A DNA stretch of 64,000 nt, taken from positions 375,183-439,182 of the forward strand of contig JBAZWG010000001.1 in NCBI GenBank assembly GCA_041660505.1, read 5' to 3'. Source of the stretch: Minisyncoccota bacterium. GTDB taxonomy: Bacteria > Patescibacteriota > Minisyncoccia > Phycocordibacterales > JACRKE01. Position numbers and translations under genes: made by a program. Under the pieces are notes generated by a model. That model was not told the origin of the DNA and made no database searches. It was given only the letters and a program-made list of their open reading frames with translations. Below are positions 5,021 through 62,449 of the stretch, one piece after another; position 1 is the stretch's first letter; every line of letters starts with the position of its first letter.

Positions 5021-6196
5021 TTAATTATACACTCGCTTGATGAGCGGGTTGATGCGCGTTATTATTTCGTAATTTATCGTGCCGGCTTTTTCGGCTAGTT
5101 CGTCAGCGGTAATCGTCTGGCCAATTAATTCTACTTCGTCTCCTATTTTAATATTAGGAATATTGGTAACGTCTATCGATATTATATCCATCGAGACTCG
5201 GCCAATTACTTTCGCTCGTTTGCCGTTAATCGCCACAAATGCTTTTGATGACAGCGCTCGCGGATAGCCGTGCCAATAACCTATCGGGCAAACGGCAAGT
5301 TTGGTACCGGGCGGGACTGTCTCTGTATGGTCATAGCCTACACTGCCACCGTCTTTAAGCGTTTTAATTTCTGAAATAATCGTGTGCCACGAAAGCGCCG
5401 GCTTGAGTGTGATATTCGTGCCGATTGCATCCCGCACCGTCGGATCAGACCAGAGGCCGTACATGCTTATCCCGCTGCGGATCATATCGAGATGTGCATC
5501 GGAAAAAGTTAGAGTCGGCCCGGATGCCGACGCGTGTGTTATGGGCGTAAATCCGGCATTTTTAAATTGCGAAATAATTTCTGCAAAGATTTTCAGTGCC
5601 AAATCTACTTGTTCTGTCGTGCCATTGTGCCTGCCGAACGGGAAGTGCGTATAAACTCCCTCGACAATAACATTGGGTACTTCGTTTTTTAAATAGGCAA
5701 TAACTTGCGGAATTTCTTCCGGCAAGAATCCCTGCCGGTGCATCCCCGTATCTATTTTAAGGTGAGTTTTTAGTTTGTAGTTTTTAGTTTTTAGAATTTC
5801 TAAATGCTCAAGATGCGAAACGGTGATACTGACATCATTCTCGATTGCTTCAGTAATACGTGACGGCAATGTGTAGCCGAGAATTAAGATCGGTAGCGTA
5901 ATACCTTCTTCGCGCAAGCGCACCGCCTCGGTGATAGAGTCTACGCCTATCCAATCCGCGCCAAGGTCTTGCATTAATTTAGAATATTCCCAAAGCCCGT
6001 GTCCGTAGGCGTTAGATTTAGCGACAGCCATAAGCTTAATTTTGCCAACAAGGTCTCTCCTCGAGGAGGAGCTCTGCGACGGGAGAGGTGAGTCCTTGTT
6101 GTCGATAAGCTTACGAAACGTATCGTAGTTATGCCGAATGGCAGACGTATCCACCTCGACCCAGGTGCGCACGTCGGTTGGTTTGTTTGAGTTCAT
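5021..6196 (-). CDS. alr: Alanine racemase (carries an in-frame palindromic-element insertion)
   Basis: AVAKSNAYGHG PLP-binding motif and overall alr architecture. Insertion encodes KDSPLPSQSSSSRRDL. Confidence 0.9.
   Translation of the reverse strand: MNSNKPTDVRTWVEVDTSAIRHNYDTFRKLIDNKDSPLPSQSSSSRRDLVGKIKLMAVAKSNAYGHGLWEYSKLMQDLGADWIGVDSITEAVRLREEGITLPILILGYTLPSRITEAIENDVSITVSHLEHLEILKTKNYKLKTHLKIDTGMHRQGFLPEEIPQVIAYLKNEVPNVIVEGVYTHFPFGRHNGTTEQVDLALKIFAEIISQFKNAGFTPITHASASGPTLTFSDAHLDMIRSGISMYGLWSDPTVRDAIGTNITLKPALSWHTIISEIKTLKDGGSVGYDHTETVPPGTKLAVCPIGYWHGYPRALSSKAFVAINGKRAKVIGRVSMDIISIDVTNIPNIKIGDEVELIGQTITADELAEKAGTINYEIITRINPLIKRVYN
6050..6097. repeat. Family-1 palindromic element (GAGGAGAGACCTC / GAGGTSWSTCCTC arms), in-frame inside alr
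   Basis: aaggtctctcctc…gagaggtgagtcctt, an imperfect inverted repeat shared with 7 other copies. Confidence 0.8.
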
Positions 6197-6264
6197 ACCA
6201 ATAGTATAAGCATTTTTGCCATGAAACGCGAAATTTGATACTATGCAGTCTTGATTGATATTGC

Positions 6265-6335
6265 GCGGGCATAGTTTAGCGGTAAAATGTCAGTTTTCCA
6301 AACTGAGGTTCCGGGTTCGACTCCCGGTGCCCGCA
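6265..6335 (+). tRNA. tRNA-Trp (anticodon CCA)
   Basis: Cloverleaf by hand: acceptor GCGGGCA/TGCCCGC, anticodon loop TTCCAAA, T-loop GGTTCGACTCC. Confidence 0.85.
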
Positions 6336-11511: not shown

Positions 11512-12756
11512 CTATGGCAGGAATTTCTTTTTTCGCAAAAGTTTGTGGTAGGCAATGGCGAAACGATGTGACTCGCTGTTGGCGAGGAGAATTGCATCGG
11601 ACTTGCCTAGTATATTTTTCTTCTCACCCAATATTTCTCGCGGCTTATGGCGTTCATCTTTTACTACGCTGACAACCGGAATAGTAAAACCTTTTTGTTC
11701 TAAAACTTCTTCAGCTGTATTTTTTTGCGGATAACCACCGTCGGTGACTATCAAATCCGGTAGTGGCCATTCGTCATGACCGAGCCTGCGCGTGAGCACC
11801 TCCTTCAAATTCGCAATGTCGTTCCCGCCCGACATTGCCTGCAGCTTCAGTCGCTGGCGGGCGGGCACACTGCCTTCGGCTAACTTTTTTATTTTGAATT
11901 TTCTGTAGCCAGACTTTTTTGCTATTCCGTTTTCAATGACGACCATGACGCCCACACTGTTTTTACCCGATAAGTGTGCAACGTCATACGCTTCTATTCT
12001 AAAATCAGAAGTATCGATATCTGTCTTAATCAAAGAAATATCGTGGATGTGTTGTAACGAAAAAATCTGTCGTTTTTTCTCTCCCGCCTTTTCAAAATCC
12101 TGCGCTTTTGAAAATTCAGCCATTTCTCGTTCGAGCAATTTAATAACTTTCTGTTTCTTACCTTCAAAAAAAAGTTTGATATTTCTGACGGTTTTCATGT
12201 ATTCCGTGCGCGTAACTTTACCAATACAAGTACCAGGACATACGCCCAATTCATAATCAAAACATGGACGCAATACTCCCCTCTCCTTCGGGGAGGGGTC
12301 GGGGGTGGGGTTGTGCGTATTAAAAGGAAATAATTTGCGAATTAATTCATACGCCGCGCGCAAACTTTGCGCACCGGGGAATGGCCCGTAGGTGCCCGCA
12401 CCGCGCGTGAGTAAAATTCTTGGGAACGGATCTCTTGTAATCGTCACATAAAGAAAGCTTTTATCATCTTTATCTTTTGTATTGTAAGGTGGCTGTAATT
12501 TCTTTATCATCTGCGCCTCGAGTATGAGCGCCTCAAGTACCGAATCTGTCTTCACATATCCGATAGTCGTCGCCTCGCCCACCATATTCACGATATGCGC
12601 ACCCCGCGTGTAACCAAGGTCGGATGAGAAATAACTCCGCACTCGTGAGCGCAGAGATGTCGCCTTGCCTACGTACAAAACCGTGGCACCTCGTTTGAAT
12701 AGGTACACCCCCGGCTCTCCGGGCAACTTAATATCCTTGAATTCTTGTATAGTCAT
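11512..12756 (-). CDS. uvrC: Excinuclease ABC subunit C-like (GIY-YIG N-terminus; carries family-2 element insertion)
   Basis: GIY-YIG motif (GVYLFK…LYVGKA…) and UvrC core; 414 aa, short for UvrC. Insertion encodes HNPTPDPSPKERG. Confidence 0.8.
   Translation of the reverse strand: MTIQEFKDIKLPGEPGVYLFKRGATVLYVGKATSLRSRVRSYFSSDLGYTRGAHIVNMVGEATTIGYVKTDSVLEALILEAQMIKKLQPPYNTKDKDDKSFLYVTITRDPFPRILLTRGAGTYGPFPGAQSLRAAYELIRKLFPFNTHNPTPDPSPKERGVLRPCFDYELGVCPGTCIGKVTRTEYMKTVRNIKLFFEGKKQKVIKLLEREMAEFSKAQDFEKAGEKKRQIFSLQHIHDISLIKTDIDTSDFRIEAYDVAHLSGKNSVGVMVVIENGIAKKSGYRKFKIKKLAEGSVPARQRLKLQAMSGGNDIANLKEVLTRRLGHDEWPLPDLIVTDGGYPQKNTAEEVLEQKGFTIPVVSVVKDERHKPREILGEKKNILGKSDAILLANSESHRFAIAYHKLLRKKKFLP
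12276..12313. repeat. Family-2 palindromic element (short form), in-frame inside uvrC
   Basis: cccctctcc-ttcg-gggagggg hairpin plus gggggtgggg tail. Same motif as 27412-27490 and 61900-61987. Confidence 0.7.
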
Positions 12757-13060: not shown

Positions 13061-15634
13061 TTACTTCTTCAAATGTTTCTTTAAATATTTTCCGGTTTCG
13101 GATTTCGAATCGTTCGCAATGTCTTCTGGCGTGCCTTTGGCAATAACATGCCCGCCTTTGATACCGCCTTCTGGGCCAAGGTCGATGACCCAGTCTGCAG
13201 TCTTTATCACATCCAGGTTGTGTTCTATTACTACCACGGTGTTACCCCTGTCTACCAATCTGTTCAAGACTTTAAGCAAATTTTCGATATCGGCAAAGTG
13301 TAAACCGGTTGTCGGCTCATCAAGTAAGTATAAAGTCTTGGTCGTATCGCGCTTACCAAGTTCGGCCGAGAGCTTCACCCTTTGCGCTTCCCCACCGGAC
13401 AAGGTCGTAGCCGGCTGGCCGAGCTCGAGGTAGCCGAGGCCAACATCGTTCAAGATTTTTAATTTATCGTGCAACCATGGGATATCATCGAAGAACTTTT
13501 CCGCTTCTTCTATTGTCATCTTGAGTATCTGATAAATATTTTTCTTTTTATATTCTACTTCCAATGTTTCGCGATCGAAGCGCTTGCCTCGGCAAACGTC
13601 ACATTCTACATACACCGTAGGCAAGAAGTGCATCTCGATGGCGATAAGCCCGTGACCTTCACAGTTTTCGCAGCGTCCGCCGGGCACATTAAATGAGAAC
13701 CGGCCCGGCTTGTACCCACGCACGCGAGCGTCCTCTGTTGAGGCAAACATATCGCGAATGAATGTCCAAGCACCCACATAGGTGGCCGGGTTAGAACGTG
13801 GTGTCCTGCCTATCGCCGCTTGGTCGATAGTGATAACACGGTCGACGTATTCTGCACCAAGGAGCTCATGACATGGCTGTACTCCGACGCTTCGGTCGGA
13901 GCTGCTCGCGACGCTCGCGTGATATGGATCTTTCGAACGCATCATTTTATACAGCACATCGTATACAAGCGATGACTTGCCCGAGCCGGAGACGCCAGTC
14001 ACTGCCGTGATACGTCTTAACGGTATGTCTACATTTAAATTCTTTAAATTATTCGCCTTGGCTCCTCTAATTTTTAAATATGCGTGACCTTGTTTGATAT
14101 CACGGCGCTTGGGCACTTCTATCTTCATCTCTCCGCGCAAATATTTAAGTGTGGGCGAAGTTTGCTTTTTATCATCTATCAAGTCTGGCATCGGGCCTTC
14201 GGCAATTATCCTCCCACCGTGGATGCCGGCCGCTGGGCCAAAGTCGACTAAATGGTCAGACGACCAAATTGTATCTTCGTCATGCTCGACAACAATAATA
14301 GTGTTGCCAAGATCGCGCAGGTCGTGCAATGTTTTAATAAGCTTCGCATTATCGCGCTGGTGCAAACCTATGGTCGGCTCATCAAGCACGTATAAAGTGC
14401 CGGTTAATCGCGAGCCGACTTGTGAAGCAAGTCTTATTCTCTGCGCTTCCCCACCGGATAAACTGCCGGATTTTCTATCGAGCGTCAAATATTCCAACCC
14501 GACGTCTATCATAAATTTAAGTCTATTCTTGATTTCTTTTATCGGGACTTCTGTAATCTGCGTACCCTTCATGCCAGAGAAAAAAGTAAAAGCCGTATTA
14601 ATAGACATTTCAGAAATGCTCACAATATTTTTTTCTTTTATCAAAACATTCAGTGCCTCTTCGCGCAGGCGCTTGCCGTGACACTTGGGGCACACCTCAT
14701 CGCTCCAAACATCTTTGGTCCCCAAACCGTGGCAGACATCACAAGCGCCGTATGGACTATTGAAAGAAAAGAGGCGTGGCTCAATCTCGGGAAAAGTAAA
14801 ATTATCTTCCGGGCAGGTGAACTTTGACGACAAAAGTAACTCGGTCTTTCCCGTTACTATGTTTACCAGTTCATTTCCATATTTCAAAGCAGACTCAACC
14901 GCCTCAGATAATCTAAGTCTGTTTTCTTTATTACTAAAATCACTCATGGTCGGGATTTCGTCTACCACAAGCTCTATCGTGTGCGCTTTGTAACGAGACA
15001 AATTAATCCGTTCTTTAAGCGAATACCACTCGCCATCAACGCGCACCTCACGAAAGCCAGCATTTAGGAAATCGTAGAGCATCTGATAGTACTCCCCCTT
15101 GCGCCCGCGCACCGCCGGAGCCATAATCTTTATCGAATCGTAAGAATTTTTTACGAGTTGCTTGAGCGTTTTTGAGTTGTCCGAGGTCTCGCCTCGGACA
15201 TGAGAAAATTCGATAATCGCATCCACGATTTGCTCGTTTGTAAGCTTTTTAATCTCCCGACCACAGGTTGGGCAGAATGGCGTACCCGCACGTGCGAACA
15301 AGACGCGCAGATAGTCGTAAATTTCTGTTGTCGTCGCCACTGTGGAACGTGGATTGTGCGAATGGCTCTTCTGATCAATAGAAATAGACGGCGAGAGTCC
15401 ATCTATCTCATCAACGTCCGGCTTATCTAATTTCCCCAAGAATTGCCGCGCATAAGCAGAAAGAGACTCGATATATCGGCGCTGGCCCTCGGCAAATATG
15501 GTGTCGAAGGCGAGAGAAGACTTACCCGAGCCCGAAAGGCCGGTAAAAACGGTCATCTTCCCACGCGGTATCTCTAAATTCACATTCTTGAGATTATGCT
15601 CCCGCGCGCCTTTAATTATGATTTTGTCTTGCAT
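13061..15634 (-). CDS. uvrA: Excinuclease ABC subunit A
   Basis: 857 aa. Two ABC ATPase modules ([10 protein letters not shown]; [11 protein letters not shown]), zinc-finger Cys pairs, LSGGEAQR signatures. Confidence 0.95.
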
Positions 15635-16136: not shown

Positions 16137-16883
16137 CTATTCTGGAGTAAGACCCCAAAGAATGTCGAAGATAACCTTAAAGGCAGTGACTATTTCCGGA
16201 ATAGCAATAATAATAGCTACAGGATTTGTATGGCTCAAAACCAGCACTTTATCATCATGGATGTCCAAACTATCTTGGAATTGATATCCTTCCGGCAGGT
16301 AGCGTGATTCGCGCAATAGTTGCGGGTCGGCAGGGTCACCGCTACGTGAGTCGGCAGTCAGTAACAATTTCGTACTGATTCCCCGCGCACTGCGCTCATA
16401 ACGAAACTTAAGAAAAAAATCTGGGTCGATTGATTCCCATGTCATCGAGGAAATAATCCGATACCAGCGATCTTTTTTCGATTTTGTCTCATATTCATCC
16501 AAAAGTGATTCGTAGAAAGCTGTAATCTCCTTCTTCCCTTCCAGGTATCTGATTCCCAGCTTCTCGGTTTTAATTTTTTCCTGAGTCGGCAAGGTTGGAA
16601 TAAGAGTCTCGAATAGATTCAGCTTCCTGGAAAAAGCACGCGCCAACCACTCCGGCCGTTGGGCGGCATAATTTCGCTTCCCATTCTTAAAATAGACATT
16701 AACCACACCTTTTTCTGCTAATCCCTGCAAGATAGGGTAGATTGTCGTGCGCCTTAGGCCGATCTCTTTGGCCACCGCCGACGCCTGCGAGGCACCGAGT
16801 TTAAGAAGGGCCAAATAGGCCTGTGCCTCTTGCTCGCCCAACCCTAGATTCTTCAATGCCCTGGTTTGTTCGTGATAAGTCAT
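16137..16883 (-). CDS. TrmB-family transcriptional regulator (copy 1), divergent from the Cys-rich protein gene
   Basis: N-terminal wHTH LGLGEQEAQAYLALLKLGASQASAVAKEIGLRRTTIYPILQGLAEKGVV typical of TrmB, plus C-terminal TrmB-like domain. Confidence 0.8.
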   Translation of the reverse strand: MTYHEQTRALKNLGLGEQEAQAYLALLKLGASQASAVAKEIGLRRTTIYPILQGLAEKGVVNVYFKNGKRNYAAQRPEWLARAFSRKLNLFETLIPTLPTQEKIKTEKLGIRYLEGKKEITAFYESLLDEYETKSKKDRWYRIISSMTWESIDPDFFLKFRYERSARGISTKLLLTADSRSGDPADPQLLRESRYLPEGYQFQDSLDIHDDKVLVLSHTNPVAIIIAIPEIVTAFKVIFDILWGLTPE

Positions 16884-17012: not shown

Positions 17013-18704
17013 ATGAATAAAGAAACTAAACAGTGTCAGAATTGCAAAAATAATTTTGCCATCGAACCCGAAGACTTTGCATTTTATGAAAAAATGCAGG
17101 TCCCGGCACCGACTTTCTGCCCTGAGTGCAGGATAATACGGCGATTCAGTTGGAGGAACGAGCGGTCATTGACGCGCAGACCTTGCGGTATTTGCAAGAA
17201 GCCGGTAGTTGCGATTTACTCGGAAACAAATCCTTTTCCCGTATATTGCCGAGATTGCTGGTGGTCGGACAAGTGGGATAGCAGTGACTATGGTCGGGAT
17301 TATGATTTTTCAAAACCATTTTTTTCTCAGTTCATGGAACTTTACAATCAAGTTCCGAAGGTGAACCTTTTCGGACAAAACAACGTGAACTCGGACTATT
17401 CCACCAATGTTTGGAATTGCAAAAATTGTTACCTGTGCACCTCAACGCTGAACTGTGAAGACATATTCTATTCTCGAGGGATGGATGCAAGCTTCTGGTG
17501 TGGCGATTGCCTGCATGTCTCAAAAGGTAATCATGCGTATGAATGCGTAGACTCCTCGAATGTTAATTCGAATTCGTTTCTCTCTGATTCATCCGATTGC
17601 GTTAATTCTCACTTTCTCTTTGACTCGCGCAATTGTTCGGACTGTTTCATGTCGGGTAACCTGCGTAACCGCCGCTTCGTGTTCCGTAATGAACAATGTT
17701 CCGAGGCAGACTACCGGGAGAAAATGGCGCAGATACAGATGAATAGCTACACGATGCTGCTGTCGCTCATTGAGGAATTTGAAAAGGTGAAACGGTCATC
17801 CATACACAGGTTTGCCAAGATACTAAAGAGTAACGACTGTACCGGCAATTCTATTTCTAATTCCCATAATGTAAAGGACAGTTTTTACATCGCCTCCGAC
17901 GGCGAGCACGTGAAGTATTGCTACCGTGGCCATCATATCACCGACGCGTATGACTCATCATTTGTCATCGAGGCCGAAATGGTGTATGAAAATTTGAACA
18001 TCGGCTACGGTGCTACTCGTTCCAAGTTCTGCACCAATATTACGTACAGCATACACGATGTGTCCTATTCCGATGCTTGCTATACCTCATCCGACCTATT
18101 CGGATGCGCAGGGCTGCGCGACAAGAAATACTGTATTCTCAATAAGCAGTATTCGAAAGAAGACTACGAGGCGCTCGTACCGAAAATTATTGAGCATATG
18201 AAGAGCACAGGTGAATATGGCGAATTTTTCCCCACCGCTCTTTCACCTTTTGCCTACAATGAAACGCTCGCACAAGAATATTACCCACTCTCAAAAGACG
18301 AGGTTTTGGCAAGAGGTTACCGGTGGAAAGAATCCGATGCCAAGAAATACGCGATAACCAAAGGTTCGAATGATCTGCCGAACGATATCAAAGATGTTCC
18401 GGATACGATAATCAAAGAGGTCATCATGTGTGCGCACAAGGACAAAGACTGCAACGAAATGTGCGCCACAGCATTTAGAATAATTCCGGCAGAATTAGAG
18501 TTGTATCGTAAAATGGGGTTACCGCTTCCTCGTCTCTGCCCCAACTGCCGCCATTTTGCCCGATTACAGAAAACCGTCCCGCTCAAACTCTGGAAACGGT
18601 CATGCATGAAACCGGGATGTATTAACGAATTTGAAACTTCATATGCACCTGATAAACCCGAGATCGTATATTGCGAATCTTGTTACCAGCAGGAAGTCAG
18701 CTAA
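17013..18704 (+). CDS. Large Cys-rich multi-zinc-ribbon protein, paralog A (unknown function)
   Basis: 563 aa from MNKETKQCQNC. CxxC-x17-CPxCR modules at both ends, central Cys/Asn/Ser repeat region. Clear paralog of 43573-45324. Confidence 0.75.
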   Translation: MNKETKQCQNCKNNFAIEPEDFAFYEKMQVPAPTFCPECRIIRRFSWRNERSLTRRPCGICKKPVVAIYSETNPFPVYCRDCWWSDKWDSSDYGRDYDFSKPFFSQFMELYNQVPKVNLFGQNNVNSDYSTNVWNCKNCYLCTSTLNCEDIFYSRGMDASFWCGDCLHVSKGNHAYECVDSSNVNSNSFLSDSSDCVNSHFLFDSRNCSDCFMSGNLRNRRFVFRNEQCSEADYREKMAQIQMNSYTMLLSLIEEFEKVKRSSIHRFAKILKSNDCTGNSISNSHNVKDSFYIASDGEHVKYCYRGHHITDAYDSSFVIEAEMVYENLNIGYGATRSKFCTNITYSIHDVSYSDACYTSSDLFGCAGLRDKKYCILNKQYSKEDYEALVPKIIEHMKSTGEYGEFFPTALSPFAYNETLAQEYYPLSKDEVLARGYRWKESDAKKYAITKGSNDLPNDIKDVPDTIIKEVIMCAHKDKDCNEMCATAFRIIPAELELYRKMGLPLPRLCPNCRHFARLQKTVPLKLWKRSCMKPGCINEFETSYAPDKPEIVYCESCYQQEVS

Positions 18705-20800
18705 ACTTTTTTATCTTTCTCCGCCTCCTTCCCCAGTTCATGCAGATCTTTCGTGAGCGTCTTTACTTCATCGCGCAGGAGCGCGGCGAGTTCAAAGTCT
18801 AGTTGTTTGGCCGCTTCTTTCATCTCTCTTTCTTTTTCTTTAATTAATTTCTCTAACGCTCTGGTTGTTTTTGGTACTGGCTTTAATTCCAGATTCAAAA
18901 CCTCTTCCGGCAAGATATCTTTTATCTCTTTGATAATAGTCTTGGGCGTGATGCCATGCTCTTTGTTATATGCGAGCTGTAAGGTACGGCGCTTGTTGGT
19001 CACGTCGAGCGCCTTCTGCATCGAGCCGGTCATAATGTCGCCGTAGAGAATGACTTGCCCCGACACATTGCGCGCCGCACGGCCGATAGTCTGAATGAGC
19101 GATGTTTCGCTTCGCAAGAATCCTTCTTTGTCGGCATCGAGTATCGCGACGAGAGAAACTTCCGGCAGGTCGAGACCCTCGCGAAGTAAGTTTACGCCCA
19201 CCAGCACGTCATACTTCCCTTTCCGGAATTCTGTAAGTATTTTTATTCTATCAAAAGTTTTTACATCGCTATGCAGATAGGCCGCTTTATATTTCTTCTC
19301 TTCCAAGTAGGCGCTCAAGTCCTCCGCCATCTTCTTGGTTAAGGTCGTTATCATTATTCTCTCTTTTTTCAGAATAACCGGATCAAGTCTTTTCTTTAAG
19401 TCCTCGATTTGTCCGCGCGCCGGAGACAAAATAATTTCGGGGTCAACCAGCCCAGTCGGTCGAATAATTTGTTCCGCGACCTGCGCGCTTTCCTTCAGCT
19501 CTTCTTCGCCCGGCGTAGCCGAGGTATATACCACTTGGCCGATCTTCGCCTCAAATTCTTCATAGCGCAAAGGCCGATTCTCGGCGGCAGAAGGAAGTCT
19601 GAAGCCGTACTCAATCAATGTCTTTTTGCGCGCCTGATCGCCAAAGTACATCCCGCGTATCTGGGGCAGTGTGATATGCGACTCGTCGATAATAGTGAGG
19701 AAGTCGGGAAACGGAGCGAGGCCATTCCCTCGTGAAGTTGACGAGGAGAGACCTCCTCCTGCCGCCCGATTGGCGGCTTGGGTCGTCGGAGGACTCACCT
19801 CATCAACTTGGGGAAAGTACGAGAGTAAGGAGTCAGGTGAGTCGCCTGGTTGCCTACCAGACAGATGCATCGAATAATTCTCGATACCACTGCAATATCC
19901 CACTTCACGGATCATCGCGAGGTCAAACTTGGTGCGACGTTCGATACGTTCTGCTTCGAGAAGTTTCCCTTCTTTTTCAAACTTTGCGAGCTGGGTTTTG
20001 AGTTCTGCCTGTATAGCTTTAATCGCACGCTCACGGTCAACACCTTCTGTAATGAAATGCTTAGCCGGCGCTATAGCCACAGTATCAACACTCGGTGTTG
20101 ATTTGGTCACGCCTTCCACGGGGTTAATCGCCAATATTTCAGAAATATAACCGTTCTGGACGCGCAAGTTATAAATAACCTCCTCATTCGCCGGCATTAT
20201 CTCCCATTGGTCACCACGGAGGCGGAATGTCCCGCGCGTTAGGTCTGCTGTCGTGCGCTTGAATTGGAGATTAATCAGTTTTTTTACTAAACTTGCGCGC
20301 TCTATCGCTAACCCAACATTAAAGAATAAAATATTCTCGCGATAGCGCTCCGGCGCACCGAGGCCGTAGATGCATGATACCGACGCCACTATTATCGTAT
20401 CTTTACGCGTAAGTAACGACATCGTCGCCGCGTGACGCAAACGGTCTATCTCCTCGTTAATCATCGCTTCTTTCTCTATATAAGTGTCAGTGATGGGCAT
20501 ATAAGCCTCGGGCTGGTAGTAGTCGTAATAGGAGACAAAGTAATGCACGGCGTTATTAGGGAATAATTCTCGAAATTCGTTACAGAGCTGAGCGGCGAGA
20601 GTCTTATTGTGCGCAATAACCAAGGTCGGCTTCCTCGCCTGTGCGATAACATTAGCCATTGTGAACGTCTTGCCACTACCGGTCACGCCGAGCAAGGTCT
20701 GCTTGGCCATACCCGCGTCTAAGCCAGCCACAAGCTTATTTATGGCCTTAGGCTGGTCGCCTGCCGGGGCATGTTTGGACTTAAGGTCGAAAATAGGCAT
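18701..20800 (-). CDS. uvrB: Excinuclease ABC subunit B (carries family-1 element insertion)
   Basis: 699 aa; helicase motifs GVTGSGKT, DESH, C-terminal UvrB/UvrC-interaction coiled coil. ~21 aa in-frame insert …SPPTTQAANRAAGGGLSSSTS… between YFP and DFL. Confidence 0.95.
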   Translation of the reverse strand: MPIFDLKSKHAPAGDQPKAINKLVAGLDAGMAKQTLLGVTGSGKTFTMANVIAQARKPTLVIAHNKTLAAQLCNEFRELFPNNAVHYFVSYYDYYQPEAYMPITDTYIEKEAMINEEIDRLRHAATMSLLTRKDTIIVASVSCIYGLGAPERYRENILFFNVGLAIERASLVKKLINLQFKRTTADLTRGTFRLRGDQWEIMPANEEVIYNLRVQNGYISEILAINPVEGVTKSTPSVDTVAIAPAKHFITEGVDRERAIKAIQAELKTQLAKFEKEGKLLEAERIERRTKFDLAMIREVGYCSGIENYSMHLSGRQPGDSPDSLLSYFPQVDEVSPPTTQAANRAAGGGLSSSTSRGNGLAPFPDFLTIIDESHITLPQIRGMYFGDQARKKTLIEYGFRLPSAAENRPLRYEEFEAKIGQVVYTSATPGEEELKESAQVAEQIIRPTGLVDPEIILSPARGQIEDLKKRLDPVILKKERIMITTLTKKMAEDLSAYLEEKKYKAAYLHSDVKTFDRIKILTEFRKGKYDVLVGVNLLREGLDLPEVSLVAILDADKEGFLRSETSLIQTIGRAARNVSGQVILYGDIMTGSMQKALDVTNKRRTLQLAYNKEHGITPKTIIKEIKDILPEEVLNLELKPVPKTTRALEKLIKEKEREMKEAAKQLDFELAALLRDEVKTLTKDLHELGKEAEKDKKV
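19743..19801. repeat. Family-1 palindromic element in-frame inside uvrB
   Basis: gaggagagacctcc-(31 nt)-ggaggactcacctc. Confidence 0.8.
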
Positions 20801-40511: not shown

Positions 40512-41435
40512 CTACGACCTTGAGTGGAACGCTTTGTGCACCTCGCGCAACTGTTTATCAGTCACGTGAGTATAAATTTGGGTCGTTGAAATATTAGAGT
40601 GGCCGAGCATCGCCTGCACCGAACGTAAGTCTGCGCCATTACCGAGCAAGTCTGTAGCAAAGCTGTGGCGGATGACGTGGGGTGTAACTTTTTTAGAAAT
40701 TCCGGCTTTGATGGCGTAATGCTTGACGATGCGCTCAACCGAGCGAGAAGTGAGTGGTTCGGTGGAGATATTCACAGATTTTACTTTCAACTTTTTACTT
40801 TCAACTTTGCCAACTGCACTGTGAGACACGAACAGTGCGTCCCCGGCATCCCCGCGCTTATCAAGATAACTTTTCACTGCTTTTTTCGCCGCGTCGGTCA
40901 GGAACACCACGCGCACCTTGCCGCCCTTGCCTCTTATAGAAAATTCGTCGCGCTTCAGGTCTACTTTATCGATAGTCAGAGAACATAATTCAGAAACGCG
41001 CAGACCTGTCGAGAAAAGTAATTCTAGTATGGCCGTATCGCGCAAATTTTTAATATCCGTGCCCTGCGCCGACTTCATTAGTCGCTCAAGCTCGTCGTGA
41101 CTAATCAAATCCAGATGTCGTTCGCCGGTCTTAGCCAGTTCGATACGGTCTGGCGAGAGGGAAGCAATACTCTCCCGCACCATGTATTTCAAAAAAGAGC
41201 GTAAAGCGATAAGATGATAGTTCTGCGTGTTCTTCTGCAGATTTTTACGATTCAAAAAAAGTCTGTACTGCCTGACAATTTCATCAGTAATATCAGAGGG
41301 CACTTTAGCCTTCGAGAATTCAAAAAATGTCTTGAGATATCGATCATAATTCTCCACGGTCTTGAGCCCGCGCCCTTTCTCAATCTCCACATATTCAAGA
41401 AACCGTTGTTTCAAGTCAGGAATATTGTGCGACAT
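40512..41435 (-). CDS. Tyrosine site-specific recombinase XerC/XerD family
   Basis: N-terminal SAM-like domain and C-terminal catalytic box …HVIRHSFATDLLGNGADLRSVQAMLGHSNISTTQIYTHV (R…HxxR…Y). Confidence 0.85.
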   Translation of the reverse strand: MSHNIPDLKQRFLEYVEIEKGRGLKTVENYDRYLKTFFEFSKAKVPSDITDEIVRQYRLFLNRKNLQKNTQNYHLIALRSFLKYMVRESIASLSPDRIELAKTGERHLDLISHDELERLMKSAQGTDIKNLRDTAILELLFSTGLRVSELCSLTIDKVDLKRDEFSIRGKGGKVRVVFLTDAAKKAVKSYLDKRGDAGDALFVSHSAVGKVESKKLKVKSVNISTEPLTSRSVERIVKHYAIKAGISKKVTPHVIRHSFATDLLGNGADLRSVQAMLGHSNISTTQIYTHVTDKQLREVHKAFHSRS

Positions 41436-45389: not shown

Positions 45390-46148
45390 ATGATTAAGCC
45401 AATCTTAAGTAAGCTCGGTTTGAGTGAGAGCGAGATCGCTGTGTACAGTCAGGTGGTAAGGCATCGGCTTTGCACACCGGCACTGATTGCCCGCGAGACC
45501 AAGTTAAATAGACCGACGGTATACAACATCTGTAAGAAATTGGTCGCCCGCGGCCTACTTATTGAGGATTTGGGTGATAAGACCTTAAAATTACTGCCTA
45601 CAGCGCCAGATGAACTCGCTTCTATATTAAAACGGGACGAAGAGGAACTTAAAAATAAAGCACTGGTGCTGGAGCAATTGGGTAATGAGCTCGCGCTTAT
45701 GAAGAGCAGCAGGACGTACCCCGTGCCAAGAGTACGTTTTATAGAACAGGATCGGCTCAATGCGTATATGCATACACAAACGCCGACGTGGAACACGAGC
45801 ATCGGTAATTACGATAATATCTGGTGGGGATTCCAAGACCATACTTTTGTGGAGCAGTACAAAGAGTATATTTTGTGGTTCTGGAGGACAGCTGATGAGA
45901 GTATTAGCCTTAATTTACTTAGCAATAGCGCGCCAATAGAGGAGGAGATGAAAACAGAGAATTTCACACGTCGCCACATAAAGCCGTGGGACAAGGGCAT
46001 GATGTTTAGTGCCACGACATGGGTATTAGGCGACTATCTCGTTATGATTGTAACCGACAAAGAGCCGCATTACCTTGTAGAAATCCACGACGAACGCATG
46101 GCGGGGAACTTTCGCGAGTTGTTTAAGAACATTTGGGGATTGATTTAG
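45390..46148 (+). CDS. TrmB-family transcriptional regulator (copy 2), divergent from Cys-rich paralog B
   Basis: N-terminal wHTH LGLSESEIAVYSQVV…IARETKLNRPTVYNICKKLVARGLL. Confidence 0.75.
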   Translation: MIKPILSKLGLSESEIAVYSQVVRHRLCTPALIARETKLNRPTVYNICKKLVARGLLIEDLGDKTLKLLPTAPDELASILKRDEEELKNKALVLEQLGNELALMKSSRTYPVPRVRFIEQDRLNAYMHTQTPTWNTSIGNYDNIWWGFQDHTFVEQYKEYILWFWRTADESISLNLLSNSAPIEEEMKTENFTRRHIKPWDKGMMFSATTWVLGDYLVMIVTDKEPHYLVEIHDERMAGNFRELFKNIWGLI

Positions 46149-46246
46149 ACCAGAGGCTCACAGCTGTTTACCGAGTCGGCGTAGGGCCACGCTCGTACTC
46201 GAGTGGGGTAAAGACGCGAGGGAGACAGCTGTGAGCCTCTGGTCTT
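46149..46246. repeat. Large perfect inverted repeat (20-bp arms, 58-nt loop)
   Basis: gaccagaggctcacagctgt…acagctgtgagcctctggtc immediately after the TrmB-like stop codon. Confidence 0.7.
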
Positions 46247-46945
46247 GAGTAAAACAATAAAGGCTTGCGGGGGTTGGGAACTACCGTTTCATGGTACTTC
46301 ACACTCCCCACAAGCCTTTTGTTCTGCTTGCGCAGACGTTGTTCGTTAATCACGCTATCAAGCTTCCCTAACATTCCTTCGTCTTCACAAAACTCTTTCC
46401 GAACTCAAATCGTCGGAGAACGAGTTGTGATGTCCTTTAGCTCTGACCTATAAAAAATTGAGCTTGGACAACGACTTAGGCAACGTGTGCCTTATTCATG
46501 ATTACCGTGCAACGAACTATGACTGATAGAAGTATCTCATACCAGTTATAAAGGACAAGTGGATAACTTTTTATGTCCTACAGATATATCGCGTCAAGTA
46601 ACGCTAGACTAAAGCGTAGATATGTGCTTAAATGATGTCGGCAAAGTACCTCTCTCGAGCGACGGGCATGGCACTCCGTAACTGCCGTGGATGCGGTCAG
46701 GCTTGAATATCGGCCTATTTTGTCGAGATTCAGGCCACTATGTGCAAACCTCGAGCCGCATATCGAGGACCTGTTCTGTGGAGCACCCCAAAGCTCCGTC
46801 GGCCAAAAAGCCGAGCAGACCGGGCGCACAGGCGTCAAACAGAGAGGTGGGGCCAGTACGGCTGGGGAACATCGTGTTCCCCAGCCGTTTCCACTTCTAG
46901 CGCCCAAGAAAGCCTTATTTGCAAAATGCCTCTTTATATAGTACA

Positions 46946-52706: not shown

Positions 52707-54236
52707 ATGCTTGCGAAAGTCCATTCTGCACAAGTCACCGGCTTACGAGCAGATATAATTGATATTGAGGTTGATATTTCCAAATCGTTAAAGTCTTTCA
52801 CTATAGTCGGCTTGCCGGATAAGGCTGTAGAAGAAGCGAAGGACAGGATCTCGGCGGCAATAAAAAATTCCGGCTATCCGTCACCACACAAGGGCAATAA
52901 AAAAACCGTTGTTTCACTGGCGCCGGCGGACATAAAGAAAGAGGGACCGATCTTCGATCTCGGCATTGCCCTGGGCCACATGAAGGCATCGAAGACTATC
53001 GAGTTCGATGCGCGGGATAAAATCTTCGTCGGCGAGCTGTCGTTAAACGGCGACCTGCGCCCGGTGAAGGGGATACTAATGATCGCCCGCAAGGCTAAAG
53101 AAGAAAAGTTTAAAGAACTTTATGTGCCGGCAGATAATGCCAAAGAAGCGGCGCTTATCGAAGGCATAAACGTGTACGGGTGTAAAAATCTTAAGCAGAT
53201 AGTCACACACTTAACACCCGGCCCGAGCTTCAAAATAAAACCGAATCCGAAGACGGAGATAATATACGTAGAGCCAACTTACGTGACAGATATGGCGCAC
53301 ATTCATGGTCAGGAATCGGCTAAGCGCGGGCTCGAGATAGCCGCAGCCGGTGGCCACAACATCATCATGAGCGGTCCACCTGGGACAGGCAAGACGATGC
53401 TCGCCAAGGCTTTCGTTGGTATCCTCCCGCCACTCTTATTCGACGACGCGCTCGAAGTGACTGGTATATATTCTGTCGCGGGGCAATTGGATGAAGAATT
53501 AATGACCCATCCGCCTCTGCGCTCACCGCATCATACATCATCATATGTGTCCCTCGTCGGTGGCGGGACATTCCCCAAGCCGGGGGAGATTACGTTGGCT
53601 CATCGCGGAGTATTATTCCTTGATGAATTCCCCGAATTTGAAACTAGAGTTATCGAAGCATTACGTCAACCATTAGAAGACAGGGTCATTCACGTCTCGC
53701 GCATCAAAGGCACCGTCAAATTCCCGGCAAGCTTCATTCTTGTCGCGGCTATGAACCCATGCCCCTGCGGTAATAAGGGCTCGAAGAAGAAAGAATGTAT
53801 CTGCAACCAGTCTATGCTAATGAAATATTCTCGCAAAATATCCGGCCCCATAATTGACCGCATCGATTTATATTTAGAAGTTCCGCAGATAGAACATGCT
53901 AAACTCGCCGACACCGGCTATCACGGCGAGTCATCTAAGACGGTGCAAGCACGCGTAAAGAAGGCGAGAGAAAAGGCGCTCACGCGATTTAAGAATGCCG
54001 GGGTAAATATAAATATGAACAGCGAGATGAGCGGGGAACAGCTGAAGAAACTCGTGCCGTTAACCAAAGAATGCTCGCAAATACTCATTTCGTCTGCAGA
54101 GAGGTTGAACCTTTCCGCAAGGGCATATCATCGGGTTATCAAACTCGCGCGCACTATCGCCGACCTCGCCGATGCAGAAAGTGTCGCTGAAAATCATATC
54201 TTAGAAGCTTTACAGTACCGCCCCAAGGTTGCATAA
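52707..54236 (+). CDS. comM: YifB/ComM-family Mg-chelatase-like AAA+ ATPase
   Basis: 509 aa; N-terminal Lon-protease-like domain, Walker A GPPGTGKTMLA, ChlI/MCM-like core, characteristic C-terminus. Confidence 0.9.
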   Translation: MLAKVHSAQVTGLRADIIDIEVDISKSLKSFTIVGLPDKAVEEAKDRISAAIKNSGYPSPHKGNKKTVVSLAPADIKKEGPIFDLGIALGHMKASKTIEFDARDKIFVGELSLNGDLRPVKGILMIARKAKEEKFKELYVPADNAKEAALIEGINVYGCKNLKQIVTHLTPGPSFKIKPNPKTEIIYVEPTYVTDMAHIHGQESAKRGLEIAAAGGHNIIMSGPPGTGKTMLAKAFVGILPPLLFDDALEVTGIYSVAGQLDEELMTHPPLRSPHHTSSYVSLVGGGTFPKPGEITLAHRGVLFLDEFPEFETRVIEALRQPLEDRVIHVSRIKGTVKFPASFILVAAMNPCPCGNKGSKKKECICNQSMLMKYSRKISGPIIDRIDLYLEVPQIEHAKLADTGYHGESSKTVQARVKKAREKALTRFKNAGVNINMNSEMSGEQLKKLVPLTKECSQILISSAERLNLSARAYHRVIKLARTIADLADAESVAENHILEALQYRPKVA

Positions 54237-54959: not shown

Positions 54960-54995
54960 AAGGTTCGACCTTAAGCATCCAAAAGGTCGAACCTT
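54960..54995. repeat. Family-3 paired palindrome element, intergenic
   Basis: aaggttcgacctt-aagcatccaa-aaggtcgaacctt. Confidence 0.8.
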
Positions 54996-59324: not shown

Positions 59325-59338
59325 AAATTTTTTGATTT

Positions 59339-59374
59339 AAGGTTCAACCTTTTAGGTGCTTAAGGTTGAACCTT
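59339..59374. repeat. Family-3 paired palindrome element, intergenic (divergent promoter region)
   Basis: aaggttcaacctt-ttaggtgctt-aaggttgaacctt. Confidence 0.8.
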
Positions 59375-60048: not shown

Positions 60049-60049
60049 T

Positions 60050-60316
60050 ATGAGCAAGTACGCATTCTTAGACACACCATTAGGGGGAACGACAGGGGCA
60101 CAAATCCCGCCGTTAAAGCTTTGGACCGTCGGCACAATCATCGAGAAATCCGAGAATAAGGCTTACCAGACGCCCAAGAATCCAGTCTACGCACTCGGCC
60201 TATATCTCAAGAAGCGCTTCGGCAACAAGCCGGAGGTTATGAGCTTAACACTTGCTGACTGTGCGAAAAAGTATCCGGCAACTCCCGCTGATTTTGCAGG
60301 AGACAGTGTGGAATAA
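60050..60316 (+). CDS. Small hypothetical protein
   Basis: 88 aa ORF immediately after the previous stop. Confidence 0.4.
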   Translation: MSKYAFLDTPLGGTTGAQIPPLKLWTVGTIIEKSENKAYQTPKNPVYALGLYLKKRFGNKPEVMSLTLADCAKKYPATPADFAGDSVE

Positions 60317-60337
60317 ACAGTATGTTATACTGGCTGG

Positions 60338-62449
60338 ATGCAGAATAATCATCAAGAGTTGAATCCGGCACAAGCCGAGGTGGCCTCATATCTACGAGGG
60401 CCGCTTTTGATTGTGGCCGGCGCTGGCGCAGGCAAGACCAAAACCATTGCGCATCGCATTCTGAACCTTATACAGTCCGGCATACCAGCACACCAAATAC
60501 TGGCAATAACTTTTACCAACAAAGCGGCGAAAGAAATGCGGGACCGCGTCCTGCATCTTATTCAATCCGAATCAGCCAAACTTTCAACTCCCTTCGTTTC
60601 CACCTTCCACTCCCTCGGCGTTTATATAATAAAAGAACAAGCATACCGTCTTGGCCTCACGCGCTACTTCACCATTTATGATCAAGACGATTCTCTATCC
60701 GCTATCAAGCGCGCGCTAAAAAGCGAGGGGCTTGACCCGAAACAGTATGAACCAAAGCGCCTGCAGAACGCCATCTCGCGAGAGAAAAACAATCTGGTTA
60801 CGCATGACTTATATTCAGAACAACATTTGGGTGAATATTGGGGCGATATCGTAGCCAAAGTCTGGAAAGCGTATGAAAAGATTTTAGAAAAAGATAAAGC
60901 CCTCGACTTCGATGACTTGATTGTGAAAACAGTCTGGCTCTTTGAGAAATTTCCTGAAGTGCAAAAATATTATGCCAACAAATGGCACTATATACATATA
61001 GACGAGTATCAGGATACGAACGTGGCGCAGTATGCGCTATCGCACTTGCTCGCAAAATCACATAGGAATATCTGCGTGGTCGGAGACACCGATCAAGCCA
61101 TCTACGGTTGGCGCGGAGCAGATTATCAGAATATTCTCAAATTCGAGAGTGAGTATCCTGACGCGAAGGTAGTCTTGCTCGAGCAGAACTATCGCTCGAC
61201 ACAGACGATACTAGAAGCGGCGAACAGCATAATAAGCAAGAATACTTTACGCAAAGAGAAGAATTTATTTACGGCGAACGCCAAGGGCGAGCAAGTTACA
61301 ATCTACCAAGCGGGGGATGGCCCTCGCGAGGCTCATTGGGTAGCCAAGAAATGCGAGGAATTAATTAGAGGCCGAGGTGAGTCCTCCGGTAAAAGCGGAG
61401 GTCTCTCCTCGGCCACAACGGGCATAAACCCCAATAATATAGCCATATTGTACCGAATGAACTTCTTGTCGCGCTTGTTTGAAGAAGCTTTCCTGACGCG
61501 CGGAGTGCCATATCATTTGCTCGGCACAGCCTTCTACTCGCGCAAAGAGGTTAAAGATACCCTAGCCTATATCCGCCTTGCGCTTAATTCTGAAGACACG
61601 GCAAGTTTATTGCGTATTATAAATGTGCCGGCACGCGGGATAGGCGATGTAACAGCAGAAAAAATCGTAGTGGGCAAAGAAGATGAGCTCCCGGCAAGCA
61701 TGCGCGACAAACTTTCTAGCTTCCGCAGTATTCTTGCAGATATTAAAGCAAAGTGCTTGAGCGAGACACCGTCTAACGCCGTGCGCTATGCGATAAAGAG
61801 AAGCGGGATAGAAGCGATGTATGCTGATGGTAAAGAGGAAAGCGAAGAGAGACTGGAAAACGTACGCGAGCTCGCAACCCTTGCTACGAGATATGACAAC
61901 CTCACCCCCGGCCCCTCTCCGAAGGAGAGGGGAGAACTAAATGACGCCCCCTCCCTTTCGGGGAGGGGGATGGGGGGCGAGGTGACCGCGGGCATCGAAA
62001 AGTTTCTAGAAGACACAGCGTTGCTCTCCGATCAAGATTCTTTGATGAATAAAAAAGAAGGCGTGCGGATGATGACCGTGCACGCGGCGAAAGGTTTGGA
62101 ATTCGATTATGTATTTATCGTTGGACTCGAAGGCGACATCTTCCCGCACAGGAGGATGAACGATGACGCGAGCATCGAACAGGAAGAAGAAGAGCGAAGA
62201 TTATTTTATGTCGCGCTCACGCGCGCGAGGAAGAAAGTTTTCTTAACGCACTGTCTCATTCGCACCATCTTCGGCTCGCAGAAAATTCAGTCACCATCGG
62301 AATTTATTGGCGATATTCCGGAAGATTTAGCAATTACCGAAGGGGCAGAAAACGGCTATGCAGAGCCATTTTCCCTGCCTCGCCGACAGGCAGGTAGCAA
62401 TAGCGACGGCGAAGTGGTGATAGAATGGGATATATTTAAACGAAGATAA
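60338..62449 (+). CDS. pcrA: ATP-dependent DNA helicase PcrA/UvrD family, with two in-frame palindromic-element inserts
   Basis: Motifs Q, I (AGAGAGKT), II (DEYQDTN), III, IV, V, VI (VHAAKGLEFD). Inserts encode RGRGESSGKSGGLSSA and NLTPGPSPKERGELNDAPSLSGRGMGGEVT. Confidence 0.9.
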   Translation: MQNNHQELNPAQAEVASYLRGPLLIVAGAGAGKTKTIAHRILNLIQSGIPAHQILAITFTNKAAKEMRDRVLHLIQSESAKLSTPFVSTFHSLGVYIIKEQAYRLGLTRYFTIYDQDDSLSAIKRALKSEGLDPKQYEPKRLQNAISREKNNLVTHDLYSEQHLGEYWGDIVAKVWKAYEKILEKDKALDFDDLIVKTVWLFEKFPEVQKYYANKWHYIHIDEYQDTNVAQYALSHLLAKSHRNICVVGDTDQAIYGWRGADYQNILKFESEYPDAKVVLLEQNYRSTQTILEAANSIISKNTLRKEKNLFTANAKGEQVTIYQAGDGPREAHWVAKKCEELIRGRGESSGKSGGLSSATTGINPNNIAILYRMNFLSRLFEEAFLTRGVPYHLLGTAFYSRKEVKDTLAYIRLALNSEDTASLLRIINVPARGIGDVTAEKIVVGKEDELPASMRDKLSSFRSILADIKAKCLSETPSNAVRYAIKRSGIEAMYADGKEESEERLENVRELATLATRYDNLTPGPSPKERGELNDAPSLSGRGMGGEVTAGIEKFLEDTALLSDQDSLMNKKEGVRMMTVHAAKGLEFDYVFIVGLEGDIFPHRRMNDDASIEQEEEERRLFYVALTRARKKVFLTHCLIRTIFGSQKIQSPSEFIGDIPEDLAITEGAENGYAEPFSLPRRQAGSNSDGEVVIEWDIFKRR
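61372..61412. repeat. Family-1 palindromic element in-frame inside pcrA
   Basis: ccgaggtgagtcctcc-ggtaaaagc-ggaggtctctcctcgg. Confidence 0.85.
61900..61987. repeat. Family-2 nested palindromic element in-frame inside pcrA
   Basis: cctcacccc…cccctctcc-gaag-gagagggg…ccccctccc-tttc-gggaggggg…gaggtgacc. Confidence 0.8.

Follow-up and report, generated by a model that had tools for sequence, protein, structure and literature searches.

Short mismatched hairpin elements inserted in frame in conserved genes of Candidate Phyla Radiation bacteria

We analyzed a 64,000-nucleotide stretch of the genome of a Minisyncoccota bacterium (assembly GCA_041660505.1, contig JBAZWG010000001.1, positions 375,183 to 439,182; hereafter the window, numbered from its first letter) and identified 8 copies of a short hairpin element, here called family 1, of which 5 are translated in frame within protein-coding genes. 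The element is a unit that was copied between loci and is carried by many lineages of the Candidate Phyla Radiation (CPR), and it arrived as a whole hairpin, comprising arms, loop, and short outer stem, without target-site duplication. We consider it probable that family 1 is a miniature dispersed element similar to repetitive extragenic palindromic (REP) sequences and to REPINs, their hairpin-forming doublets, within a wider superfamily of hairpins built on the shell RAGG-N5-CCTY.

The window was searched on both strands for the element arm GAGGAGAGACCTC, with at most 2 mismatches allowed and 100 dinucleotide-preserving shuffles as the control. We found 19 arm matches, compared with 0.95 ± 1.03 in the shuffles (maximum 4), and 16 of the 19 are the paired arms of 8 elements of 35-65 nt, a density of approximately one pair per 8 kb. 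These hairpins had been reported in an earlier note on this DNA, and both their coordinates and their arms were verified. PcrA and UvrB encoded in the window show 100% identity to proteins of a Candidatus Paceibacterota MAG (metagenome-assembled genome), a member of CPR.

In one strand order, the element consists of an A arm (GAGG-AGAGA-CCTC), a loop, and a B arm (GAGG-ACTCA-CCTC), each arm being 13 nt long. The arms are not plain reverse complements and pair into a 13-bp stem with 2 A·A mismatches at positions 5 and 9 (T·T on the opposite strand), separated by 3 bp. Both stem strands read GAGG-A-NNN-A-CCTC, so that the duplex is pseudo-twofold symmetric, and each arm (GAGG-N5-CCTC) is also self-complementary at its own ends, forming a small palindrome with a 5-nt spacer. 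The loop is variable (5-35 nt), with an inner hairpin in some copies, and the stem continues into a few base pairs of copy-specific outer stem. The A-loop-B arrangement was found at 19743, 32694, 36356, and, on the minus strand, 61372, and the B-loop-A arrangement, with AAGG...CCTT ends, at 6050, 29404, and 40111; the copy at 31839 is a one-mismatch hybrid. From the sequence, we read B-loop-A as the A-loop-B duplex closed by a loop at the opposite end. A long form with an inner loop hairpin was identified at 19743, 31839, and 32694, with covarying inner stems (GCCGCC/GGCGGC, GTCTGC/GCAGAC, and GCCG/CGGC), and the long loop is also present in one metagenome copy (L061). In the arm variants AGACA/AGTCA, the central triplet changes from GAG/CTC to GAC/GTC and the A·A mismatches are retained. 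The 8 copies in the window are as follows:

Copy 1, 6046 to 6101 (core 6050-6097), minus strand: B-loop-A, outer stem CAAC/GTTG; in frame in alr, encoding KDSPLPSQSSSSRRDL.
Copy 2, 19735 to 19809 (core 19743-19801), plus strand: A-loop-B, long form, inner hairpin GCCGCC/GGCGGC, 7-bp outer stem AAGTTGA/TCAACTT; in frame in uvrB, encoding EVSPPTTQAANRAAGGGLSS.
Copy 3, 29401 to 29441 (core 29404-29438), minus strand: B-loop-A, loop of 7 nt; outside any credible open reading frame (ORF), at the left edge of a GC-rich island.
Copy 4, 31835 to 31907 (core 31839-31903), plus strand: long form, inner hairpin GTCTGC/GCAGAC, a single A·A mismatch; just right of the GC-rich island.
Copy 5, 32694 to 32754, plus strand: A-loop-B, long form; nearly the whole 5' leader of a TrmB-like gene (32759-33583).
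Copy 6, 36353 to 36397 (core 36356-36395), plus strand: one mismatch; in frame in UPF0102/yraN (36143-36583, minus strand), encoding RGESSGKGGGLSS.
Copy 7, 40111 to 40154, minus strand: B-loop-A; in a hypothetical gene (39454-40410, plus strand), encoding KVSPPENIFMGGETL.
Copy 8, 61370 to 61414 (core 61372-61412), minus strand: in pcrA (60338-62449, plus strand), encoding GRGESSGKSGGLSSA.

Five copies (in alr, uvrB, yraN, the hypothetical gene, and pcrA) lie in frame in unbroken ORFs, as the earlier note had stated, and the insert peptides that it quoted match the translations exactly. Four of the hosts have Pfam identities (Ala_racemase, UvrB, UPF0102, and UvrD/PcrA), and the fifth, the hypothetical gene, has no Pfam match. 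The alr host (5021 to 6196, minus strand; alanine racemase, 391 aa) is an intact ORF with PF01168 and PF00842, and in the uvrB host (18701 to 20800, minus strand; 699 aa) the insert separates YFP from DFLTIIDESH (helicase motif II). Noted before as near-identical, the copies in yraN and pcrA differ at 3 of 41 nt and use the same element-relative frame. The loop of copy 7 holds a nested 12-nt perfect palindrome, GAAAATATTTTC (40126-40137), which is absent from the relative L056. The description of copy 5 as the leader of a TrmB-like gene was also borne out: it begins 5 nt past a TTGACA-17-TAGTAT site and stops 4 nt before the ATG. This promoter-like site, with an extended -10 (32661 to 32689, plus strand), is a consensus match only.

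When folded as single-stranded DNA, 6 of the 8 copies give the expected long hairpin (z = -4.9 to -7.7), including the uvrB copy (z = -5.7), copy 3 (z = -5.9), the copy at 31839 (z = -7.7), and the yraN and pcrA copies (z = -7.1 and -6.9). The alr copy folds more weakly (z = -2.8), and the 5'-leader copy at 32694 prefers 2 mini-hairpins (z = -2.0). A scan for the shell alone (RAGG-N5-CCTY / loop / RAGG-N5'-CCTY) identified 13 hairpins in the window, 8 of family 1 and 5 of a second family described below, compared with 0 in 100 shuffles. In approximately 43 kb from the nearest relatives (L001, L098, and L100), the same scan found zero shell hairpins, against 13 in the 64 kb of the window, whose lineage has therefore acquired many copies in recent time.

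Comparison with orthologues showed that the PcrA and UvrB segments are insertions and not ancestral sequence, because the closest orthologues lack them. The closest PcrA orthologues (76-67% identity) are without the segment GRGESSGKSGGLSSA, and a codon-level comparison with the 76% relative showed that exactly 45 nt, GGCCGAGG...CCTCGGCC, were inserted and that no target was duplicated. The UvrB site between YFP and DFLTIIDESH is empty in 5 more distant CPR orthologues, holds 7 residues in an 81% relative, and in an 87% relative holds a different 105-nt palindrome with a 17-bp outer stem at the same boundaries. In the 2 proteins checked, PcrA and UvrB, the insert peptides were thus absent from distant orthologues, in agreement with the insertions proposed earlier. 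The Alr and YraN inserts fall where homologues have few residues, as judged from alignments to solved structures and Pfam profiles, and the Alr insert is N-terminal of the region where alignments to solved alanine racemases start.

The expectation that the inserts map to loops is supported for PcrA and UvrB, whose inserts are both modeled as low-confidence coil at sites that are indel-variable in orthologues. In the AlphaFold models, PcrA 347-360 and UvrB 333-363 have a predicted local distance difference test (pLDDT) score <50 and no secondary structure, each between regular elements, in models that are moderate overall (mean pLDDT 73 for PcrA and 70 for UvrB); both inserts therefore model as unstructured loops. 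An origin of the outer stems as inverted duplications of host sequence was rejected in pcrA and uvrB, where both stem sides are within the inserted DNA. An assembly artefact or adaptor origin was likewise rejected, because the copies are in frame, their flanks differ, and they recur in independent assemblies.

The family is not restricted to the genome of the window, as the same arms and mismatches occur in many CPR classes. We searched GTDB species representatives with a pattern that fixed the A arm and, in the second arm, only the GAGG/CCTC ends, leaving its centre free, and found 48 matching loci, approximately 35 of them in CPR metagenome-assembled genomes (MAGs). The CPR groups with the element include several Paceibacterota, Vogelbacteria, Adlerbacteria, Parcubacteria, Saccharibacteria, and Microgenomates, and the non-CPR matches, near the ~8 expected, are by appearance chance or tandem repeats. 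The unconstrained second arm is ACTCA in nearly all CPR matches, with both A·A mismatches kept, and 4 matches are perfect palindromes (TCTCT). The B-loop-A pattern yielded 46 loci in metagenome contigs, grouped into loop subfamilies, and the only 2 pattern matches in viral contigs are probably due to chance.

Across all copies, element size is 31-65 nt and the encoded peptides are 12-22 aa. Among 82 non-redundant copies, 31 are inside ORFs of at least 200 aa and 32 are in ORFs of <100 aa. Ten long-ORF hosts were confirmed by Pfam, including PolA in 2 genomes at the same site, UvrC in 2 genomes at the same site in different reading frames, Ile/Val-, Leu-, and Cys-tRNA synthetases, MurB, and a Mur ligase (Saccharibacteria MAG); NusA is an additional host gene outside the window. 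Some intergenic copies are flanked by an A-run and a T-run, like bidirectional terminators. Repetition of the B arm at intervals of 53 nt (A, B, B, B) was also found within a short ORF (L012 512-654 and L036 7232-7309; Saccharibacteria MAG SRP319275_co4_64), a tandem and not a hairpin layout.

Several observations suggest that the hairpin structure is itself of importance. In the outer stems, an average of 5.33 of 10 flank positions are paired; after left and right flanks had been re-assorted among copies, the figure was 3.04 ± 0.17 (at most 3.63 in 2000 trials). Coding copies have 5.84 paired flank positions on average. In a loop-trimmed alignment of 79 copies, 76.4% of cells are paired versus 59.9 ± 0.8% in shuffles, and the covariation score is 0.402 versus 0.144; none of 500 shuffles reaches the observed pairing or score, and slid controls give at most 0.146. 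All four Watson-Crick pair types are present at flank positions 2-6. The mismatch positions are unpaired in 75 of 79 and 49 of 79 copies, counts that are partly forced by the search patterns, though not in the GTDB set.

Where sites are orthologous, identity within the element is 94-100% compared with 62-83% for 200-240 nt of flanking coding DNA; arm identity here is partly ascertainment, as the loci were found with an arm pattern, whereas the loops were unconstrained. The loops at these sites show 4 differences in ~81 positions, and one 17-nt loop is unchanged among 3 genomes with flanks of 74-78% identity. In polA, the copies have in common a loop variant specific to that locus, which favors inheritance over re-insertion. 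Between the window and L056, one outer-stem pair changes from GCCGGC/GCCGGC to GCTGGC/GCCAGC through 2 synonymous, mutually pairing substitutions. The view of the elements as merely tolerated junk therefore did not hold, since orthologous copies, loops included, are more conserved than their host genes and the outer stems covary.

Within genes, the T strand is sense in 19 copies and the A strand in 10 (p = 0.14), and the reading frames used in the consensus subfamily examined are the 4 stop-free ones. The presence of both orientations in genes argues for a unit at the DNA level that translation filters, and against a signal in sense RNA. The strand bias (19 vs 10) is not significant, and the idea of a sense-RNA role was accordingly dropped.

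Family 1 is accompanied in the window by further hairpin families. Family 2 has the form AAGGTTSAACCTT-N10-AAGGTTSAACCTT, with perfectly complementary arms that are each a 13-nt palindrome. Its occurrences are as follows:

28340-28375, family-2 hairpin.
38102-38136, family-2 hairpin, in frame in cca.
39410-39445, family-2 hairpin.
54960-54995, family-2 hairpin.
59339-59374, family-2 hairpin.
218-230, family-2 single arm.
54101-54113, family-2 single arm.

The 4 intergenic family-2 loops match the consensus ARGCAYYYAA. The copy in cca, which is absent from the relative L056, has GAGG...CCTC ends and the loop GGGCTCCCA, a loop type that was also found in family-1 copies of other genomes (GGGCTCACTT and GGGCTCCTT). 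On the basis of this loop type and the common RAGG-N5-CCTY shell, we treat families 1 and 2 as pentamer variants of one superfamily. By eye, the family-1 arm resembles Shine-Dalgarno/anti-Shine-Dalgarno sequence (GAGGTGA / TCACCTC) and family 2 resembles tRNA T-arms.

Insertion sites were found to be hotspots at which one hairpin stands in place of another. The UvrB site described above has 3 different contents between identical boundaries, and the UvrC site, which bears family 1 in 2 lineages, holds a CCCCTCCCC-GAAG-GAGAGGGG hairpin in the window. In the hypothetical gene, L102 and L103 carry a 30-nt hairpin, TCCGGACGCTCGGCTTCCGGG, exactly at the site that is occupied by family 1 in the window and in L056, and L104 carries yet another hairpin. 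At the yraN site, L103 has a family-2-type shell hairpin (GAGG-TCAAA-CCTC ... GAGG-TTCGA-CCTC) and the window has family 1. A Nomurabacteria PcrA (P0050) contains an unrelated 23-aa insert, DRAGVAFENGLAGGGTQESEDLS, at the family-1 site of the window PcrA, so that other CPR lineages, too, have a hotspot of insertion in this loop. Survival in permissive loops explains part of the hotspot pattern. That replacement has occurred in frame again and again also suggests a preference for landing or exchange at hairpins already in place.

The element shares much with known hairpin repeats. REPINs consist of 2 imperfect palindromes in inverted order that form a hairpin, and they occur in 2 doublet configurations (PMC3337134). 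In REP sequences, the foot of the hairpin is preceded, 0-2 nt on its 5' side, by a conserved guide tetranucleotide, GTAG/GTGG (PMC6006769), and in the systems of REP with REP-associated tyrosine transposases (RAYT) and of the insertion sequences (IS) IS200/IS605 the folded single-stranded hairpin is recognised (PMC6006769, PMC3337134). Like REPs and REPINs of Pseudomonas and Enterobacteria (PMC3116915, PMC3337134, PMC6006769), family 1 comprises short imperfect palindromes in inverted doublets of 2 configurations, with spacers that vary and yet fold, many copies plus singlets, no target-site duplication, occasional terminator-like flanks, and long persistence with high conservation. In contrast, the CPR element has 13-nt arms and a total length of 31-65 nt versus ~89 nt for the GI REPIN, and approximately 40% of its unique copies lie in genes and are translated, unlike the mostly extragenic REPs. 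It also has no GTAG/GTGG foot and no detected RAYT, and its core spans class-level lineages, whereas REPs are species-specific. Because the GTAG foot and the extragenic location are lacking, we do not file family 1 as a REP.

The earlier note had interpreted the elements as selfish DNA like the Rickettsia palindromic element (RPE). This holds in part: family 1 is a dispersed palindromic in-frame repeat in conserved genes of a small-genome lineage and resembles the Rickettsia case, but it is REP/REPIN-sized, conserved, and exchanged at hotspots. As cited in PMC10969869 from Ogata et al. 2000, RPEs are ~150 bp long, and in-frame palindromic repeats are an already known phenomenon. Both RPEs, as described there, and the CPR elements are in-frame palindromic repeats in unrelated housekeeping genes of a reduced genome, with a large intragenic share and with added peptide segments that are compatible with protein fold and function. 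In the same account, the RPE encodes a conserved 30-50 aa module and is confined to Rickettsia. The CPR elements are 3-4 times shorter and have a defined mismatched duplex, 4 readable frames, and hotspots where hairpins replace one another. By analogy, family 1 works like a very small REPIN and resembles an RPE in its effect on proteins.

Two further systems invite comparison. The subterminal hairpins of IS200/IS605 are likewise imperfect (20-25 nt), recognised as single-stranded DNA, and free of target-site duplication, with mismatches that make the strands non-equivalent; they differ in that the hairpin is the entire CPR element, with no tnpA/tnpB cargo or target tetranucleotide seen. Integron attC sites offer an analogy only, in structure-based recognition, conserved unpaired stem bases, variable terminal structure, and cassette-like exchange, while the CPR copies have no integrase, attI context, or R-box consensus and lie inside genes instead of between cassettes. 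Full-text literature searches returned no description of REP, MITE (a miniature inverted-repeat transposable element), or RPE-like elements in CPR. What differs from the known RPE and REP systems is the combination of REP-sized in-frame elements, a mismatched symmetric duplex, a shared shell with variable pentamers, a cross-class core, and site exchange.

A mechanism of the REPIN/REP kind would run as follows. Propagation would go through single-stranded DNA folded into the hairpin, and a trans-acting protein, dimeric and specific for structure, would recognise it through the pseudo-twofold duplex with its A·A mismatches. The leading candidate would be an HUH/RAYT-like or other hairpin-specific nuclease or recombinase. 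Selection would then leave only in-frame, stop-free copies in permissive loops, because there is little intergenic space in these genomes.

Several results weigh against such an origin. No transposase, Y1, or HUH match was found by Pfam among ~40 ORFs of the window, and the sole recombinase among the scanned ORFs, an Xer-like gene (40512-41435), is syntenic in relatives and hence probably housekeeping. Searches with E. coli RayT (tblastn and phmmer) gave nothing below E = 0.1 in 759 kb of element-centred CPR DNA, and when 443 ORFs around the elements were clustered, the recurrent families were only housekeeping ones (MreB, TatD, KsgA, Ddl, and TrmB-like). The ORFs between paired copies in L064 and L025 encode S10/EF-Tu and NusA, with no mobilising enzyme among them. 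There is no conserved tetranucleotide at the hairpin foot, where the 10-nt flanks vary and covary as a stem, and the only invariant 4-mer, GAGG, is inside the paired core. Arm identity across deep CPR classes is unusual for species-specific REPs, and the arm identity at orthologous sites is in part a product of the pattern with which those loci were found. We saw no single population that was polymorphic for the insertion or excision of a copy, and the above-host conservation together with the compensatory changes could instead mean a host function.

A more far-reaching version, which we regard as possible but doubtful, is that RAGG-N5-CCTY hairpins, instead of being selfish DNA in decay, form a system of cassettes that is actively maintained throughout CPR. 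A dimeric protein would read the pseudo-twofold 13-bp duplex with its 2 A·A mismatches and would install, exchange, and homogenise the hairpins at fixed sites within essential genes. Such a system would explain the above-host conservation, the differing pentamer 'alleles' per site, and the same core across class-level lineages. If true, it would represent a hairpin system of a new kind, whether mobile or co-opted by the host, and its enzyme might be a new structure-specific DNA tool.

A structured motif with a function for the host is a serious alternative, because of the conservation, the compensatory changes, and the arm identity across classes, and yet we judge it unlikely. The hairpin, in the form of RNA or of DNA folded as a cruciform or hairpin, would serve a conserved CPR protein as a site of binding or processing; that protein might be a dimeric winged-helix regulator (TrmB-like), a nucleoid or replication factor, or an RNase. 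The hairpin would be kept by purifying selection; its intragenic copies would reflect a genome with almost no intergenic space. The greater conservation of the element than of its host genes, loops included, agrees with this, as do the compensatory outer-stem changes, one pair of them synonymous, and the identical arms across CPR classes. The arm is moreover an inverted repeat with a 5-nt spacer, as in many dimeric operator sites, and some intergenic copies have terminator-like A-run/T-run flanks. However, the copies are scattered over essential genes that are not related, at positions that do not correspond and in both orientations, the nearest relatives are without copies at the same sites, one hairpin stands in place of another at given sites, and arms are hardly ever single or at a fixed distance from starts. 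In the window, a copy forms the 5' leader of a TrmB-like gene, and in L087 one lies 34 nt upstream of another such gene, but the link is limited to these 2 loci, and other TrmB-like genes have no copy.

Local generation of palindromes, by growth in place through template switching or quasipalindrome correction at fragile sites, with the shared core arising from mutational convergence or microhomology-mediated copying and no dedicated enzyme, appears improbable. The nested perfect palindromes in loops (GAAAATATTTTC), the many other private palindromic inserts in the window, the hotspots with different hairpins, and the paired stem changes speak in favor of such a process. It fails to account for identical 13-nt arms with conserved A·A at roughly 80 unrelated loci in several CPR classes, since arm-to-arm correction would erase mismatches and cannot yield a conserved A·A, nor for loop subfamilies common to different loci and the clean presence/absence junction in pcrA.

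It is quite improbable that family 1 is a classical MITE, that is, a deletion derivative of an IS with a DDE transposase, moved by cut-and-paste with the 13-nt arms as terminal inverted repeats. Terminal inverted repeats, many copies with different flanks, and spread across lineages are features that the two share, but target-site duplication is absent: direct repeats of 2, 3, 4, and 5 nt were found at 3, 0, 2, and 0 of 82 copies versus 5.1, 1.3, 0.3, and 0.08 expected, the level of chance. Total length goes down to 31-36 nt, the inverted repeat runs on into copy-specific outer stems, the conserved mismatches are symmetric, and neither the window nor 0.46 Mb of element-flanking loci yielded an IS or transposase.

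CPR bacteria are thought to be reliant on DNA uptake, and Neisseria uptake sequences are often inverted-pair terminators. A DNA uptake sequence, in which the arm is favored by the CPR competence machinery and accumulates in genome-maintenance genes and as inverted pairs, would fit the many DNA-repair hosts (uvrA, uvrB, uvrC, pcrA, polA, and yraN) and is still very improbable, given that 16 of 19 arm matches are in asymmetric pairs with consistently different arms, at roughly one pair per 8 kb versus ~1 per kb for a single motif, and that the changes are insertions of 12-35 codons and not point-mutation drift.

The window contains other palindromic features beside those of families 1 and 2. A third hairpin family, CCCCTCYCC-N4-GRGAGGGG, encodes PSPKERG when in frame and accounts for further private in-frame insertions in UvrC and PcrA; its uvrC copy occupies the site that bears family 1 in other CPR lineages. 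Its copies and the single-arm hairpin in uvrA are as follows:

12278-12298, third-family copy in uvrC.
27423-27443, third-family copy.
61912-61932, third-family copy in pcrA.
61947-61969, third-family copy in pcrA.
15178 to 15200, single-arm mini-hairpin TGTCC-GAGG-TCTCG-CCTC-GGACA in uvrA (13061-15634, minus strand).

The uvrA mini-hairpin looks like a singlet form of the family-1 arm, to judge by its letters. In uvrC, a 48-nt palindrome at 11821-11868 encodes PARQRLKLQAMSG, and a similar peptide is present in the PcrA of the relative P0003. A palindromic insert, CCTGCCTCGCCGACAGGCAGG, was found near the PcrA C-terminus (62374-62394), and a perfect 16-nt palindrome, GCTTTCACGTGAAAGC, at 38074-38089 lies in a 30-nt cca insert beside the family-2 copy, both being absent from L056. 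All lineage-specific inserts examined in the window are hairpin DNA.

Two family-1 copies had been placed in the GC-rich island; instead, those at 29404 and 31839 bracket it (~29.4-31.7 kb, GC 0.61-0.74). The island (~29400-31700) reaches 0.74 GC versus 0.48 for the window and has 4 minus-strand ORFs with no Pfam match, one of which (31334-31702) matches 2 PHROG families of unknown function (E = 4e-20). Bracketed as it is by copies 3 and 4, it may represent a cassette of foreign or phage origin with hairpins as its limits. The stretches beside it (28100-29400 and 31900-32650) have no convincing ORF and no Rfam match, and contain direct repeats GTTCTCTCCTC (~32141 and ~32178) and a perfect 19-bp inverted repeat (29232-29271). 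At gathering score, Rfam identified nothing but tRNAs in the window, and no element match at E <= 1 in 27.9-32.8 kb.

Three features are joined in the long ORF at 37022-39388: at the N-terminus a LAGLIDADG_3-like segment (aa 20-88), a tRNA-Leu(CAG) predicted at 37680-37764, and the CCA-adding enzyme. As cca of relatives is 529-541 aa, the true cca start is probably after the tRNA, and the part upstream of it may be a homing-endonuclease remnant. Three TrmB-like genes were identified in the 64 kb (16137-16883, 32759-33583, and 45390-46148), with a hairpin leader only at 32759, and further TrmB-like genes are present in the relatives L041, L056, L087, and L100. After the gene at 45390-46148, there are 2 long inverted repeats unrelated to family 1 (46147-46319), with arms of 26 nt and 92% complementarity (46147-46245) and of 27 nt and 81% complementarity (46259-46319).

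CPR/Patescibacteria represent a large share of bacterial diversity and have tiny, gene-dense genomes in which mobile DNA is poorly described. Our analysis shows that CPR genomes do contain dispersed hairpin repeats, that these are forced into coding sequence and reshape essential proteins of DNA repair, replication, translation, and the cell wall by adding disordered loops, and that the hairpin is preserved unusually faithfully across deep lineages. In practice, the inserts inflate and confound alignments and phylogenies of CPR proteins, make sites in 'core' markers hypervariable, and can give rise to assembly or annotation errors. The symmetric mismatched duplex is a sharply defined substrate with which to seek the recognising enzyme, and CPR bacteria provide a second, independent system after Rickettsia for the part of selfish palindromes in protein evolution.

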